Virus record (IMG/VR): IMGVR_UViG_648276647_000007
Length of the DNA stretch: 36,541 nucleotides
Source of the DNA: a virus
Taxonomy: Duplodnaviria; Heunggongvirae; Uroviricota; Caudoviricetes
Reading direction: 5' to 3' (one strand)
Positions 3,329 through 10,044 of this stretch are shown here, in pieces (position 1 is the first letter of the stretch; the number at the start of each line of letters is the position of its first letter). The position numbers and the translations under genes are program-made. The notes beneath the pieces were generated by a model. That model did not search any database and was not told where the DNA came from. It worked only from the letters and a program-made list of their open reading frames with translations.

Positions 3329-3775
3329 GTTTTACATGCCTTGACTTATCGGATGAAATTCTCTTACTGAATTTAACGGCAGTTTAATAGCCGTACAACT
3401 CGTGGTAGCCAGGGAAATATCCCAGTCGTGGTTAAGGTTGTACTTGACGGCTATTATTTCAACAATGCTTAAAGTGAGAGCTTAAGGTTATGCGTATGTT
3501 TTACAGTCCGAGTAGATTCTGACCAATAGCTTCTTTGTATAATTCTGTCAGAAATAAATCTTGGCTTGCATGAAGTTTGAGACCTTATCTTGTTTGATTA
3601 TGAATAATCAATTCGCCATAATTGTATCACCGGAGCCTGAACAACTCCGGTGACTTCTGCGCTAAACGGGGACGTTTATGCGCACACACAATCCAAACTC
3701 TCTTCTCCCTTCACAGATGCAGAAATGCACCTGCGTTTTTTTGCATCCAGCGTCTGACCTCTGTGGAGGTGAAGC

Positions 3776-4231
3776 GTGAACCTACCACAAGATGGCATCA
3801 AACTGCATCGCGGTAACTTCATCGCTATCGGCCAGCAGATCCAGCCTTATCTGGAGAACGGAAAATGCTTTCGCATGGTGCTTAAACCGTGGCGTGAGAA
3901 ACGCAGTCTTTCCCAGAATGCACTCAGCCACATGTGGTACAGCGAAATCAGTGAATACCTCATCAGCAGGGGGAAATCGTTCGCTACCGCAGCATGGGTA
4001 AAAGATGCTCTCAAACACACATACCTCGGTTATGAAACCAAGGACCTGGTTGATGTCGTAACCGGCGAAATCACTACTATCCAGTCGTTACGCCATACCT
4101 CCGATCTCGATACCGGAGAGATGTATGTCTTCCTGTGTAAGGTTGAAGCCTGGGCGGTGAATATTGGCTGCCACCTGACTATTCCGCAGAGCTGCGAGTT
4201 CCAGCTGCTGCGCGACAAGCAGGAGGCGTAA
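3776..4231 (+). CDS. ninB: NinB/YbcN-family recombination protein
   Basis: 151 aa, GTG start preceded by GGAGG; position and size match the DLP12-type nin region (ybcN). Homology is from recall, not alignment. Confidence 0.65.
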
Positions 4232-5043: not shown

Positions 5044-5180
5044 TGTTTGAGTCTTATATGGCAGAACGTCTTCGCCGCCGCTGGGTGCGCCTGCGCTTAT
5101 ATCGTTTTCCTAGTTCTGTTTTGACCGATTACCGGATACTGAAGAATTACGCCAAAACACTGAAAGGAGCTGCCGCATGA
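5040..5180 (+). CDS. YlcG-like small basic protein (46 aa)
   Basis: Not in the ORF track. ATGATG start overlaps the rusA stop; its stop overlaps the start of the Q-like gene (ATGA). Size and position match DLP12 ylcG. Confidence 0.5.
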
Positions 5181-5866
5181 ATACCCAATATTTACAGTAT
5201 GTCCGCGAGCAACTCATTGTGGCTACCGCTGATTTGAGCGGAGCAACGAAAGGACAGCTTGAAGCCTGGCTGGAGCATGCACAATTTGATACTGGTACAT
5301 ACAAACGAAAGAAGCCGCGCATTCTGGATGAGGTAACTGGCAGGATGATTACGCTGGATAATCCGCCGATTTCCGGTAAGCAGTTGTACGCAAAAGGTTC
5401 ATCCATTGCACTGGTCAGCCAGGTTGAGTTCTCAACCTCGTCATGGCGCCGCGCGGTTCTGTCTCTCGAAGAACATCAGAAAGCGTGGTTGCTGTGGAGT
5501 TACAGCGAAAGTGTTCGCTGGGAACATCAGGTCACCATAACGCAGTGGGCATGGAGCGAGTTTAAGACTCTGTTGGGTACCAGGAAAATTGCAGGTAAAA
5601 CACTGGAACGTTTGAAGAAGTTGATCTGGCTGGCGGCACAGGATGTGAAGAACGAGCTGGCAGGGCGTAAGACCTATGAATACCAGGAGCTGGCATCACT
5701 GGTGGGAGTGACATCAAAAAACTGGTCTGAGACATTTACTGAACGCTGGATTGCAATGAAGCACATTTTTCTACAGCTTGATAGCCAAGCTTTATTGCTT
5801 TTAACGAAAACACGTTCAAAACAAAAGACCATATTTTCACAGCAAGATATTGCAAAACTGGATTAA
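5177..5866 (+). CDS. Late-gene antiterminator, Q-family (QuuD/QuuQ-like, not lambda Q)
   Basis: 229 aa ORF immediately upstream of a promoter/leader/terminator unit and the lysis cassette, which is the canonical Q position. No similarity to lambda Q itself that I can see. Confidence 0.55.
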   Translation: MNTQYLQYVREQLIVATADLSGATKGQLEAWLEHAQFDTGTYKRKKPRILDEVTGRMITLDNPPISGKQLYAKGSSIALVSQVEFSTSSWRRAVLSLEEHQKAWLLWSYSESVRWEHQVTITQWAWSEFKTLLGTRKIAGKTLERLKKLIWLAAQDVKNELAGRKTYEYQELASLVGVTSKNWSETFTERWIAMKHIFLQLDSQALLLLTKTRSKQKTIFSQQDIAKLD

Positions 5867-5970: not shown

Positions 5971-6045
5971 GAACGGTGAGTAGCCTTCCAACCTACCCCA
6001 GCCAGGGTGTCTTCAGTTGTTGAGTTGATATTGCTTAACCCTCTG

Positions 6046-6072
6046 TTGCCAGCTACATGCTGGCTTTTTTAT
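6046..6072 (+). terminator. tR'-like intrinsic terminator (gccagc-tacat-gctggc + T7)
   Basis: Perfect 6-bp GC stem plus tttttta about 190 nt downstream of the candidate -10. This mimics the lambda pR'-tR' 6S transcript arrangement that Q antiterminates. Confidence 0.55.
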
Positions 6073-6187
6073 TCCAGGCTTGCGGGGAGCATCAACTCCG
6101 TGCTTTGTCGTTAAATTACCCCGTGAGCCTGATTTCTGACATTTAACGTCCCGGCCTTTTGTCGGCGGCGAAACATTGGCTATTCAT

Positions 6188-6493
6188 ATGCACGAAAAAG
6201 AGAGCCTTGCCGGAGCGTTCTGGCTCGTTTTGCTGATCATCGCAGGTTGGGGCGGTCTGGTCCGCTACCTGATAGATGTGAAGCAGAGTAAAGCAACGTG
6301 GAGTTGGATAAATGCTCTGGCTCAAATAGTGGTATCAGGATTCACCGGTGTTATTGGTGGCCTGATCAGCATCGAAAGTGGATTCAGTATTTACATGATT
6401 CTCGCGACAGCGGGGATTAGTGGTGCGATGGGTTCGGTTGCACTGACGTACTTCTGGGAACGACTGACAGGGGTGAAAAATGCAAAATCTTAA
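6188..6493 (+). CDS. Holin (three predicted transmembrane segments; not lambda S)
   Basis: About 101 aa with three hydrophobic helices and a charged C-terminus, directly upstream of and overlapping the endolysin gene. The track ORF begins at a TTG at 6176; first ATG is 6188. Confidence 0.6.
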   Translation: MHEKESLAGAFWLVLLIIAGWGGLVRYLIDVKQSKATWSWINALAQIVVSGFTGVIGGLISIESGFSIYMILATAGISGAMGSVALTYFWERLTGVKNAKS

Positions 6494-6956
6494 TCCTCAG
6501 CGTAAAGCCTTCCTCGATATGTTGGCGTGGTCAGAAGGAACGGATAACGGGCGACAACCGACACGTAACCACGGTTATGATGTTATTGTTGGCGGCGAAC
6601 TGTTTACTGATTACTCCGATCACCCTCGCAAACTTGTCACGCTACACCCCAAACTCAAATCAACAGCCGCCGGACGTTATCAGCTTCTTTCACGCTGGTG
6701 GGATGCTTACCGTAAACAGCTTGGTTTGAAAGACTTCTCCCCCAAAAGCCAGGACGCAGTGGCATTACAGCAGATTAAAGAGCGTGGTGCTTTACCGATG
6801 ATTGATCGCGGTGATATCCGTCAGGCAATCGACCGTTGCAGCAATATCTGGGCTTCACTGCCGGGCGCTGGTTATGGTCAGTTCGAGCATAAGGCTGACA
6901 GCCTGATTGCAAAATTCAAAGAAGCTGGCGGAACGCTCAGAGAGAGTGAGGTATGA
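6480..6956 (+). CDS. R: Endolysin R (lambda-type lytic transglycosylase)
   Basis: 158 aa; near-identical to my recollection of lambda R ([20 protein letters not shown]...[21 protein letters not shown]...). Confidence 0.9.
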
Positions 6957-7405
6957 GCAGAATAACCGCGATTATCTCCGCTCTGGTTATCTGCGTCATC
7001 GTCTGCCTTTCATGGGCGGTTAATCATTACCGCGATAACGCGATTACCTACAAAGCCCAGCGCGACAAAAATGCCAGAGAACTGACGCTGGCGAACGCGG
7101 CAATTACTGACATACAGATGCGTCAGCGTGATGTTGCTGCGCTCGATGCAAAATACACGAAGGAGTTAGCTGATGCGAAAGCTGAAAATGATGCTCTGCG
7201 TGATGATGTTGCCGCTGGTCGTCGTCGGTTGCACATCAAAGCAGTCTGTCAGTCAGTGCGTGAAGCCACCACCGCCTCCGGCGTGGATAATGCAGCCTCC
7301 CCCCGACTGGCAGACACCGCTGAACGGGATTATTTCACCCTCAGAGAGAGGCTGATCACTATGCAAAAACAACTGGAAGGAACCCAGAAGTATATTAATG
7401 AGTAG
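6953..7405 (+). CDS. Rz: Spanin inner-membrane subunit Rz (i-spanin)
   Basis: 150 aa with N-terminal TM segment and coiled-coil body, start overlapping the R stop; lambda Rz-like. Confidence 0.85.
7173..7355 (+). CDS. Rz1: Spanin outer-membrane lipoprotein subunit Rz1 (o-spanin), embedded in Rz in the +1 frame
   Basis: 60 aa; lipobox LVVVGC and proline-rich [15 protein letters not shown] segment as in lambda Rz1; wholly inside Rz. Confidence 0.8.
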
Positions 7406-7445: not shown

Positions 7446-7739
7446 TTATTGTGAGCAATACACACGCGCTTCCAGCGGAGTATAAATGCCTAAAGTAATA
7501 AAACCGAGCAATCCATTTACGAATGTTTGCTGGGTTTCTGTTTTAACAACATTTTCTGCACCACCACAAATTTTTGCTGCATCGACAGTTTTCTTCTGCC
7601 CAATTCCCGAAACGAAGAAATGATGGGTGATGGTTTCCTTTGGTGTTACTGCTGTAGGTTTGTTTCCAACAGTAAACGTCTGTTGAGCACATCCTGTAAT
7701 AAGCATTGCCAGAGCGGCAGAAAACAACATTTTTTTCAT
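7446..7739 (-). CDS. bor: Bor outer-membrane lipoprotein (serum-resistance factor)
   Basis: 97 aa from MKKM (track ORF extends further 5'); lipobox LITGC; near-identical to my recollection of lambda Bor. Confidence 0.9.
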   Translation of the reverse strand: MKKMLFSAALAMLITGCAQQTFTVGNKPTAVTPKETITHHFFVSGIGQKKTVDAAKICGGAENVVKTETQQTFVNGLLGFITLGIYTPLEARVYCSQ

Positions 7740-8219
7740 CTTATTATCCTGCATTGTTAAAAACGGCAGAATCCTATGTGACAACAATTAAACGATAGTT
7801 AAATGGATTGATGAAAATTAAAACTACACAGGTGGGCTCAGACTATTGGAGGAAGTTGGGGACACTCAGAATCCTGTGGAATGAAATAAACCGGTCTATC
7901 CGTCCATTACCCTTTTAGCTGCGCTGTATCGTCGCCGTATTCCCGCATTAACCATGACCGTAGCCCGACGGGGAATTCCTTCTGCGTGAGTGTGCGGGAA
8001 TAATTAAAAACGATGCACACCGGGTTTTTACCGCGTTAATGATTCGCGGGTTTATCCCGGTGCGATGGTGGAAGAAACAGGAAGCTGTATTACAGAAAGT
8101 GCTACTACTGTATCCCGATGCGATGTATGTAATGTGAGTCAGATAATGGCACAGGATGTGGTGATGTGGCAGTCTGGAACACAGGATATATTGTCAGAAT
8201 AAGACCCGTAGGAATAAAA

Positions 8220-8546
8220 ATGAAAAGACGCCTTTTACTACTTTTTCTGTTATCTGTCCTGGCAGTGGGATGCTCGCAGCAAAAAGCTGATGAGCCCCGG
8301 CAATTAGTGACGGTGTATCCACGATATCCGGAATATGCTGCAGCAAATTATATCAAGGGGCTGGTTGAGGTTAAGTTCGATATTGGTGCTGATGGGACTG
8401 TGACACGGATCGTTTTTCTCCGCTCAGAGCCTCATAATTTGTTTCGTGATGAAGTGGTGAAGGCCATGGCGAAATGGCGATTTGAAAAGAATCGCCCCTG
8501 TCAGGGAGTGAAGAGACAATTTATCTTTACGCCGTCACGTCCTTGA
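8220..8546 (+). CDS. Small lipoprotein with TonB C-terminal-like domain
   Basis: 108 aa from MKRRLLLLFLLSVLAVGC (lipobox), then a YP.YP...A...G.V.V.F.I..DG.V......S......F...V..A...W.F pattern typical of TonB_C/TolA-like folds. Track ORF 8166-8546 starts upstream with no signal peptide. Confidence 0.5.
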   Translation: MKRRLLLLFLLSVLAVGCSQQKADEPRQLVTVYPRYPEYAAANYIKGLVEVKFDIGADGTVTRIVFLRSEPHNLFRDEVVKAMAKWRFEKNRPCQGVKRQFIFTPSRP

Positions 8547-8668: not shown

Positions 8669-8848
8669 TCATTTCTTCTTTTTCTCTGGTGGAACCCGAT
8701 GAATAAGAGTTGCACTGGTTTCCGATGAGATGGCGATATACTCGGGCAAAGTATGCTGGCAGTTTTCCAACTGGTCAAAAATACCTGCTCTCGTCTGTTG
8801 CAATGCCTGCAGCATGCGGCGGCAATGCGCCTTGCTTTTACTAACCAT
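8669..8848 (-). CDS. Hypothetical small protein (59 aa)
   Basis: ATG at 8848-8846 preceded on the minus strand by a strong RBS (gaggaaggaaag). The longer track ORF 8669-9022 would overlap the next gene, so the internal start is preferred. Confidence 0.4.
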   Translation of the reverse strand: MVSKSKAHCRRMLQALQQTRAGIFDQLENCQHTLPEYIAISSETSATLIHRVPPEKKKK

Positions 8849-8909
8849 CTTTCCTTCCTCTATCAGTCGCTGCGTGAACTCATCATGGAATACCAGGTAA
8901 ATGCGGATG

Positions 8910-9161
8910 TTATCGGTTTTGGCTACGCAGCATAGTACAAAACGGACAGGTGCATCCCGGGACGGGGGAGGCGTCACATGTCCCTGTGATGGTTGTTCCG
9001 GGTAATGTACTGTGTGGGGCATAAAAATGTCCGATAATTTTACTTTCTACCGCAGTTAGTTGATTCGTTGGTCCTGGTAGCACATTGGGCGAGGATTTAA
9101 ATGCCAGGCAACTGAAGGATGATGTCGCAAGGGAGATAGCGAGAATATTTCTGATTTTCAT
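8910..9161 (-). CDS. Hypothetical small secreted cysteine-containing protein (83 aa)
   Basis: Start MKIRNILAISLATSSFSCLA (signal-peptide-like) preceded by GAGG; mature part has a CDASPVPGCTCPFC cluster. Confidence 0.4.
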   Translation of the reverse strand: MKIRNILAISLATSSFSCLAFKSSPNVLPGPTNQLTAVESKIIGHFYAPHSTLPGTTITGTCDASPVPGCTCPFCTMLRSQNR

Positions 9162-9309
9162 TTGATGATGCCTCTGTGTGAAATGACGGTAAACGACGCA
9201 CTTGTGCCGGCACATAATAGCAAGCACCATAATAGATCAGATTCGATTCTTGCTGTAAGTGATAATTATTCTCGTTTTCGGGTCCTTTCCGTCGATCCAA
9301 CAGGTTACG

Positions 9310-9321
9310 GGGCGGCGACCT
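9310..9321 (+). other. cos: cos site: cosN cohesive-end sequence GGGCGGCGACCT (flanking cosQ/cosB expected)
   Basis: Exact lambda 12-nt cohesive end, preceded by ...caggttacg and followed by cgcgggttttcgctatttatgaaaattttccggtttaaggcg, as at the lambda genome junction; Nu1 starts about 190 bp downstream. Confidence 0.85.
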
Positions 9322-9498
9322 CGCGGGTTTTCGCTATTTATGAAAATTTTCCGGTTTAAGGCGTTTCCGTTCTTCTTCGCCGTAACTTAATGTTTTTATT
9401 TAAAACACTCCCTGAAAAGAAAGGAAACGACAGGTGCTGAAAACGGGCTTTTTGGCCTCTGTCGTTTCCTTTCTCTGTTTTTGTCCGTGGAATGAACA

Positions 9499-10018
9499 AT
9501 GGAAGTCAACAAAAAGCAGCTGGCTGACATTTTCGGCGCGAGTATCCGTACTATTCAGAACTGGCAGGAGCAGGGAATGCCCGTTCTGCGAGGCGGTGGG
9601 AAGGGTAATGAGGTGCTTTATGACTCTGCCGACGTCATAAAATGGTATGCCGAAAGGGATGCTGAAATTGAGAACGAAAAGCTGCGCCGGGAGGTTGAAG
9701 AACTGCGACAGGCCAGCGAGACAGATCTCCAGCCAGGGACTATTGAGTACGAACGCCATCGACTTACGCGTGCGCAGGCCGACGCACAGGAGCTGAAAAA
9801 TGCCAGAGACTCCGCTGAAGTGGTGGAAACCGCATTCTGTACTTTCGTGCTGTCGCGGATCGCAGGTGAAATTGCCAGTATTCTCGACGGGATCCCCCTG
9901 TCGGTGCAGCGGCGTTTTCCGGAACTGGAAAACCGACATGTTGATTTCCTGAAACGGGATATCATCAAAGCCATGAACAAAGCAGCCGCGCTGGATGAAC
10001 TGATACCGGGGTTGCTGA

Positions 10019-10044
<26 letters not shown>
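9499..10044 (+). CDS. nu1: Terminase small subunit Nu1
   Basis: 181 aa; near-identical to my recollection of lambda Nu1 (MEVNKKQLADIFGASIRTIQNWQEQGMPV...). Confidence 0.95.

Follow-up and report, generated by a model that had tools for sequence, protein, structure and literature searches.

In the current study, we analysed the segment between the lysis genes and cos of a lambdoid prophage, in a stretch of 36,541 nucleotides (nt) of Caudoviricetes DNA (IMG/VR record IMGVR_UViG_648276647_000007) that is referred to here as the window. The interval 7740-8220, between a bor/iss lipoprotein gene and a gene for a TonB_C-domain lipoprotein, contains a conserved non-coding block (7920-8090) with a covarying fold on the plus strand, apparently an undescribed conserved RNA structure. 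The genes and features at the locus are:

6480-6956: R endolysin gene of the lambdoid prophage
6953-7405: Rz/Rz1
7446-7739, minus strand: bor/iss lipoprotein gene (Pfam Lambda_Bor, E = 1e-30), a moron between Rz and the block
7920-8090, plus strand: conserved lambdoid block (75-100% identity in hundreds of lambdoid phages), candidate structured RNA, with a 5' domain (helices P0-P3) and a 3' domain (P4-P5)
8065-8202, plus strand: open reading frame (ORF) of 45 codons, 'hypothetical protein' in the phage 21 record
8220-8546, plus strand: TonB_C-domain lipoprotein gene (Pfam TonB_C, E = 7e-13), annotated so in phage 21 and RefSeq
9310-9321: cosN (GGGCGGCGACCT)
9499-10044: Nu1, phage-21-type

The TonB_C gene, like bor, is an inserted moron, located between the block and cos. 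Phage 21 (OL657228), 6 further phage records and 821 complete Escherichia coli genomes carry the interval 7740-8220 with 100% identity, and partial matches to it occur in 3,579 of 5,426 genomes. Its annotation consists of just the one 'hypothetical protein' (8065-8202) in the phage 21 record, and RefSeq gives none. An nhmmer profile of 36 block copies matched the window a single time, at 7920-8090 (E = 4e-53), and a sensitive search matched the region at about 7917-8094 in 432 phage records with 60-100% identity. The carriers include lambda, HK629/630, 434, 21, mEp460, 933W and other Shiga toxin (Stx) phages, Shigella POCJ13, and Salmonella ES18 and SPN3UB. Megablast similarity to lambda and 434 ends at about 8028, and alignment extends the similarity through CCGGTGCGATGGTGGAAGAAAC. 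Across lambdoid phages the block is non-coding and measures roughly 175-190 nt, and its flanks are mosaic, the left and right sequences being unrelated between phage groups. A copy without an annotated feature lies in the K-12 borD-ybcV intergenic region, and the block is unannotated in the best-curated records, i.e., those of lambda, phage 21 and K-12 DLP12. Many matches (loci L009-L046) were also obtained in non-enterobacterial 'genomes' (Pseudomonas, Cohnella, Flavobacterium, Shewanella and others), on contigs of about 3.5 kb or 48.4 kb, which are evidently contamination of assemblies with lambda control DNA.

The genomic context was examined in 135 copies (86 unique) collected from viral and genome contigs, with the neighbouring genes typed by tblastn. 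Rz was found upstream of the block and on the same strand wherever the flank suffices, and the orientation of the block is always that of late (pR') transcription. At its most compact, the layout leaves about 10 nt between the Rz stop codon and the start of the block and about 63 nt between the end of the block and cosN, a gap that contains only the TGATAAnnATTATCA palindrome and cosQ. Morons have been inserted on both sides, with bor, rha and a DUF4406-like gene between Rz and the block, and TonB_C, a ybcV-like gene, DUF3950 and lambda p79 between the block and cos or the terminase genes. ES18, JLK-2012 and many viral contigs have no bor beside the block, and in 933W-type phages the small-terminase gene lies about 100 nt past the block (+292 from the block start). 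Partial blocks were detected as well: locus L323 holds the 5' domain only, directly followed by the palindrome and cos, and loci L169, L179 and L209 hold the 3' domain only, with recombination joints inside P4 or at CACACCGGG. At another locus (L053), two block copies (5056-5245 and 6006-6195), 950 bp apart, flank a single moron ORF, an arrangement that suggests cassette exchange by recombination within the block.

From 36 non-redundant copies, RNAalifold derived nested helices, and the model tested has 42 pairs in seven helices, placed in the window as follows:

7926-7932, plus strand: P0 5' strand (GTATCGT), pairing with 8010-8016 (from RNAalifold)
8010-8016, plus strand: P0 3' strand (ACGATGC; from RNAalifold)
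7938-7952, plus strand: P1/P2 5' strand, including the left inverted arm (7938-7947), pairing with 7990-8002
7990-8002, plus strand: P1/P2 3' strand, including the right inverted arm (7993-8002)
7959-7986, plus strand: P3 (CGTAG 7959-63 / CTGCG 7982-86), capped by P3a (CCC 7964-66 / GGG 7971-73)
8018-8062, plus strand: P4 hairpin, inner stem CCGCG 8031-35 / CGCGG 8045-49, within a GGG/CCC closing stem
8057-8081, plus strand: P5 hairpin remnant, CCGGT 8057-61 / ACAGG 8077-81, with one G·A mismatch in the window and the loop GCGATGGTGGAAGAA

Standard pairs were observed in 97.2% of cells, compared to 34-60% when the 3' partners were slid by 1-3 columns. Double-sided changes affected 14 of the 42 pairs and were spread over five of the seven helices, whereas shuffles gave 3.6 ± 1.5 (0 of 500 reaching 14) and slid controls 2-10; the false-positive rate of this measure is about 0-1% according to the notes of the tool. 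G·U was observed in 151 cells and A·C in 14, an asymmetry which indicates that the folded strand is the plus strand, i.e., the sense of R, Rz and Nu1 and of the late transcript; the opposite strand was ruled out by this ratio together with its weaker fold. The block combines compensatory changes beyond controls, strand asymmetry and a non-coding sequence, all of them features of conserved structured non-coding RNAs. A conserved, covarying fold is present on the plus strand, and the block is under structural constraint on the strand of the late transcript.

The individual helices differ in how much they reveal. P0 pairs in 98% of cells, with variants in which G-C becomes A-U and C-G becomes U·G, and in locus L324 it reads GTACTGT/ACAGTGC, a double compensatory change that is accompanied by A-U for G-C in P1. 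P1/P2 pairs in 99% of cells with double changes in 3 pairs, the P1 arms being TATTCCCGCA/TGCGGGAATA in the window, TATTCCCGGA/TCCGGGAATA in lambda, and TATCCCCGCA/TGCGGGGATA or TATTTCCGCA/TGCGGAAATA elsewhere, and with U-A replacing C-G in locus L017. P3 pairs in 98-100% of cells, but since its variation is limited to C-G becoming U·G it is weakly informative. P4 was detected as an inverted repeat and in both the minimum free energy (MFE) and the centroid folds of the window copy; all 5 pairs of its inner stem show double changes across variants, and in some copies it has been swapped for unrelated sequences that still form a hairpin. P5 occurs as CCGGT/ACCGG, CCTGT/ACAGG and TCGAT/ATCGA, with double changes in 5 of 7 pairs, and its G·A mismatch in the window is explained by the joining there of halves of two variants. 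Folding of the window copy as a single sequence yields P0, P1 and P4. Several unpaired segments are near-invariant, namely ATTAAC, CACACCGGG, CCCTCATRGTCGCC and GGTGGAAGAA. An alternative helix between the P1 3' strand and the downstream C-rich GUUGUCCCC is weakly indicated, as 86% of cells pair, and one of its pairs occurs as G-C in 16 sequences and as A-U in 9.

The initial annotation of this DNA had drawn attention to an inverted pair and a direct repeat upstream of the TonB_C gene, and all four sequences are located exactly where it placed them. The inverted pair, TATTCCCGCA at 7938-7947 and TGCGGGAATA at 7993-8002, is indeed a perfect 10-nt inverted repeat, with 45 nt between its arms. 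By count alone such repeats are at chance level, as about 4 are expected per window (loop of 3-100 nt) and about 5 independent ones were observed. The pair is helix P1 of the structured element, real and conserved, and without a specific tie to the TonB_C gene; it is also the only one of the two patterns that the fold accounts for.

The direct repeat is likewise present, TATCCCGGTGCGATG and TATCCCGATGCGATG being identical at 14 of 15 positions and 58 bp apart, with the following parts:

8053-8067, plus strand: copy 1, composed of a deletion junction, the P5 5' strand and the first part of the P5 loop
8056-8057, plus strand: 16-nt deletion junction, where other copies read TATC[CCTCATAGTCGCCTGT]CCGGTG in alignments
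8111-8125, plus strand: copy 2, within the annotated hypothetical ORF, in the spacer that leads from the block to the TonB_C gene

In nearly all other copies of the block, a highly conserved segment (...GGGTTTRTCCCTCATRGTCGCCNGTCCGGTGCGATGG...) separates the P4 closing stem from P5. The window, phage 21 and their close relatives are without 16 nt of that segment, those bracketed in the line above, and have a CC microhomology at the joint. A 16-nt deletion that fuses TATC to CCGGTGCGATG, the P5 5' strand, produces TATCCCGGTGCGATG, that is, copy 1, and it is also the reason that the outer stem of P4 is longer in the window (CACCGGG 8018-24 / CCCGGTG 8056-62). Among the copies retrieved with the exact 15-mer of copy 2, all 74 with a phage-21-type flank carry the deletion. 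In addition to these, 47 matches to copy 2 were obtained in viral contigs, in unrelated contexts and at about the chance number for that collection, and a third copy is absent from the window even when 2 mismatches are allowed. Locus L102 has a phage-21-type downstream flank, is undeleted and reads TATCCTGATGCGATG at the position of copy 2, so that it contains no 15-mer pair. In JLK-2012 and locus L104, which have diverged spacers upstream of TonB_C, that position reads TATGTCATG-TGTCTG, and the nearby segments AGTCRGATAAT and ATTGTYAGAATAAGAC are kept. The possibility that copy 2 is a degenerate duplicate of the P5 region was rejected, as the common core before the deletion is just CCGRTGCGATG, which is expected often by chance.

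We conclude that the direct repeat combines the scar of a deletion with a fortuitous resemblance and does not represent a functional pair of sites. Copy 1 arose by a 16-nt deletion of the slippage type, and its likeness to copy 2, 58 bp downstream, is accidental. The statement that the repeats are unlikely by chance was too strong for the direct repeat also: 0.23 repeats of this kind (15-mer, at most 1 mismatch, at most 200 bp) are expected per shuffled window, 7 of 30 shuffles contained one, and the real window contains 2. Nor do the sequences form four copies of a related motif. The inverted arms and the direct copies have in common just TAT(T)CCCG with an indel, and the comparative data point to different origins for them.

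Among the alternatives to a selected RNA fold, the one that survives best, although we consider it unlikely, is that the block is kept only as DNA, either as a recombination linker or through recent spread, and that the covariation results from relatedness. Such a scenario would agree with the mosaic flanks on both sides, the recombinants that break within the block (L169, L179, L209 and L323), the window P5 that unites halves of two variants, and the two copies around a moron in L053, and the tool itself cautions that related sequences may beat shuffle controls without structure. It does not readily explain the number of double-change pairs (14 compared to 3.6 expected) obtained with a measure of low false-positive rate and above slid controls, their spread over five of the seven helices, or the replacement of P4 by sequences that are unrelated yet form a hairpin, and the excess of G·U over A·C is unexpected under conservation at the DNA level. 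A linker role and a functional RNA are, moreover, compatible with each other.

Less probable still is that the repeats lie in real small genes, either the 45-codon ORF at 8065-8202 or a mini-ORF that would be the leader peptide of an attenuator-like switch. Single-nucleotide indels are frequent in the block and no frame is open across all copies; the small ORFs overlapping it had no Pfam or PHROG match, and on these grounds coding ORFs at 7907-8020 (minus strand), 8039-8137 and 8065-8202 were ruled out. The last of these is annotated as a coding sequence in the phage 21 record, but its ATG sits in the P5 loop and is missing in many block variants, and the homologous frame of JLK-2012 stops after 21 codons; it is probably not a gene. 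The mini-ORF has 10 codons, MR[C/R/G]IVAVFPH*, lies at 7921-7953 in the window (also at 2027-2059 in locus L052) and overlaps the 5' strands of P0 and P1. In its favour are an ATG or GTG start in 25 and 3, respectively, of 33 unique variants, an invariant TAA, and a position about 9 nt past the Rz stop codon in compact layouts, and the alternative pairing of the P1 3' strand could be part of such a switch. On the other hand, it starts with CTG in the window, is broken in lambda and lacks a start codon in ES18, no conserved Shine-Dalgarno sequence was found for it, no terminator follows the block, and its variable positions are explained equally well by the helices.

The initial annotation had favoured either a binding-site array or a structured RNA leader. 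That the four TATYCCG/TGCGATG-like sequences are operators of a regulator controlling the TonB_C gene or bor is, in our view, very improbable. The 15-mer pair is locally unusual, with no other match in the window within 2 mismatches, and copy 2 would occupy positions of about -43 to -29 with respect to a weak -10-like hexamer, GATAAT at 8142-8147. However, copy 1 is a deletion junction limited to one lineage, copy 2 is not conserved in JLK-2012 and L104 although neighbouring segments are kept there, and differs in L102 too, helix-type covariation of the inverted arms extends to phages devoid of the TonB_C gene, and a direct repeat of this kind is expected 0.23 times per window by chance. Iterons were rejected on the same lack of conservation of the two copies. 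A promoter scan upstream of the TonB_C gene was not supportive either, since no sigma-70-like promoter was found on the plus strand in 8029-8219: GATAAT at 8142-8147 has no usable -35, and the spacing of TTGTCA (8191-8196) to a -10 is not conserved in JLK-2012. As a claim about a TonB-like gene, the binding-site array was ordinary and largely wrong, and the value of the observation rests on the block.

The idea of a structured RNA leader stands in part. The covarying plus-strand fold bears out a structured RNA for the inverted pair, but not a leader of TonB_C. Downstream of the block lie TonB_C, ybcV or DUF3950 (the latter two on the opposite strand), terminase small-subunit genes, or cos itself, and this variety of neighbours, some of them on the opposite strand, argues against a gene-specific leader. 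A riboswitch or attenuator leader of TonB_C was rejected, as no terminator is present and 130 nt of diverged spacer separate the end of the block from the TonB_C start codon. No terminator-like site was found in 7740-8220 on either strand, and there is no T run after any of P0-P5. With neither a conserved promoter nor an intrinsic terminator, the block is not an obvious stand-alone small RNA (sRNA) gene.

Promoter-like sequences were observed on the minus strand. The top sigma-70-like match of the area (8374-8347; TTAACC-16-TATAAT with an upstream TG, 10 of 12 positions) is located within the TonB_C gene and runs antisense to it, toward the block and bor. In HK629, a predicted sigma-70 promoter is annotated inside the lambda-type block variant (1518-1544 of locus L005, minus strand; about 46.93 kb in lambda), and the P0-P1 linker of lambda and 933W-type copies, CATTG instead of CGCCG, creates TGGACA-N15-TACAAT on that strand. 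This minus-strand promoter accompanies a shorter bor-to-block distance, is absent from the variant of the window, and is plausibly the bor promoter, Pbor.

Further motifs were detected around the block and cos. The 15-mers bear no likeness to the 19-bp Fur box consensus GATAATGATAATCATTATC or its 7-1-7 form TGATAATnATTATCA. A Fur-box-like 7-1-7 palindrome occurs at 9260-9274, TGATAATTATTCTCG in the window and AAAATGATAACCATTATCATTTTT in relatives (2214-2238 of L052; the lambda right end); it lies just upstream of a cosQ-like GGGTCCT (9280-9286), at a distance of about 35 nt from cosN, occurs in near-perfect form in numerous lambdoid phages, and also forms an AU-rich hairpin with a T run behind it. 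Two smaller resemblances, of GATGGTGG in the P5 loop to Chi and of GTCGCC to the complement of cosN, were judged to be at chance level. The segment from cosN to the Nu1 start codon contains a perfect 16-nt inverted repeat (AGAAAGGAAACGACAG ... CTGTCGTTTCCTTTCT, 9418-9433 / 9459-9474), which probably mirrors how the terminase-binding sites of cosB are arranged; weak chance microRNA (miRNA) matches in Rfam also fell on it. Between the TonB_C gene and cos, a 117-aa ORF (8669-9022, minus strand) matches PHROG 4843, of unknown function, with only its C-terminal 59 residues, which suggests that the real gene may be shorter than the ORF.

Considering the fixed position, the covariation and the origin of the repeat together, we regard it as likely that the block is a late-operon element, fixed in position and orientation, whose fold covaries and in which the direct repeat is accidental. 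From its position we infer that the block is transcribed and would act as RNA within the pR' late transcript. The predicted fold is a long irregular hairpin (P0-P1/P2-P3) followed by two hairpins, P4 and P5. Our best guess is that it serves as processing or stability 'punctuation' between the lysis mRNA and the packaging/head mRNA, in which case the roughly 20-bp P0-P1 helix with its internal loop may be a substrate of the RNase III type, by analogy with known phage sites. Alternatively, as several unpaired segments are near-invariant, the block might be a protein-binding platform. For an undescribed functional structured RNA with a role of this sort, in processing, stability or as a protein platform, we see somewhat better than even chances.

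A number of points weigh against this explanation. Single-sequence folding beats shuffles only modestly (z = -2.3 for the window copy and -0.7 for L047, an undeleted copy), and the MFE structure of L047 is a different fold. Much of the block is near-invariant, so that many pairs are uninformative, and the patterns used in collecting the sequences fixed part of P1 and P0. The block is not flanked by a conserved promoter or an intrinsic terminator. Among 63 Hfq-bound orphan peaks obtained by cross-linking and analysis of cDNA (Hfq-CRAC) in uninduced cells of enterohaemorrhagic E. coli (EHEC) Sakai, none is at the position of the block in prophage Sp5; prophage Sp4 is rearranged and uninformative for Hfq peaks. 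Phage 21 is viable without the conserved CCTCATRGTCGCC and with a mismatched P5, which implies that part of the 3' domain is dispensable for growth. The 14/15 identity that the deletion creates with a sequence close by would be a chance event, and one that is not fully quantifiable.

If the block is functional, a post-transcriptional element would be added to the textbook late operon, and it would be explained why the bor/iss, TonB_C and ybcV morons gather on both sides of one fixed point. The block can also be used as a landmark of the Rz-cos junction in prophage annotation.

In a comparison with known RNAs, Rfam 15 yielded no family for 7880-8230 or for the copy of L047 without the deletion (3720-3960) with a cut-off as loose as E <= 10, the sole match being a chance miRNA. 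A literature search for the block sequence and the K-12 borD-ybcV locus found no description, and a preprint on the 'Pas sRNA' does not mention the region of the block.

Part of the block resembles the repeat of type I-E clustered regularly interspaced short palindromic repeats (CRISPR). The P1 3' strand with its flank reads GCGGGGATAA in 27 of 56 unique variants, compared to the K-12 repeat GAGTTCCCCGCGCCAGCGGGGATAAACCG (10 copies), and two variants with a 5' arm of exactly TCCCCGC have the same 7-bp stem and AUAA flank. The differences are that the loop of the block is a 45-nt sub-structure, that the 5' and 3' handles differ, that the stem covaries, and that the copy of the window itself reads GCGGGAATAA. 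Assignment as a type I-E repeat or a solitary repeat unit was rejected, with stem and AUAA as the only common part, in a subset of variants only, and the resemblance is a lead of low probability. As little probability attaches to the block being, in essentially all lambda-type phages, a functional RNA of the late transcript that acts as a decoy titrating Cas6e or another RNA-binding protein as to the operator array. The weakest explanation of all is a trans-acting RNA or protein decoy in which P1 mimics the type I-E repeat hairpin and could sequester Cas6e in the manner of an RNA anti-CRISPR: the hosts E. coli, Salmonella and Shigella use this repeat type, but about 45 nt of further structure replace the 4-nt loop of the repeat, the stems differ in the window, lambda and ES18 and covary freely, none of the Rfam CRISPR-DR models matches, late-operon expression would come at a poor time for an anti-CRISPR, and the resemblance was spotted post hoc.

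A second comparison is with AgvB and AsxR (EcOnc01-03), anti-sRNAs of EHEC lambdoid prophages, which are 51-60 nt long, occur as convergent pairs, bind Hfq, and are located just downstream of pR', before the lysis genes, with a conserved 3' region of about 42 nt (PMC4104026). The block shares with them a non-coding nature, a conserved late-region position in lambdoid prophages and a place beside moron insertion sites. Membership in this group was ruled out by location and size, the block being about 180 nt long and situated after Rz, a judgement made without sequence comparison.

The block also resembles the conserved boundary or 'linker' sequences that occur at module junctions of mosaic lambdoid genomes. 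As in these, it is an island of high identity between unrelated flanks, with internal recombinant joints and morons on both sides, but its compensatory pair changes and G·U strand bias are not expected of linkers.

Finally, hairpins cleaved by RNase III, with substrates of about 20 bp, punctuate polycistronic phage mRNAs, such as those of the T7 R1.1 type, the lambda N leader and sib. The block differs from them in having no sequence or Rfam similarity, in its larger size (three hairpins), and in its highly conserved single-stranded segments, for which a simple cleavage site has no need. It is like them in its predicted long irregular double-stranded hairpin with an internal loop (P0 of 7 bp, a 5/7-nt loop, and P1/P2 of 13 bp), and in its location between functional gene sets of one long transcript, on the sense strand and with no promoter or terminator of its own.

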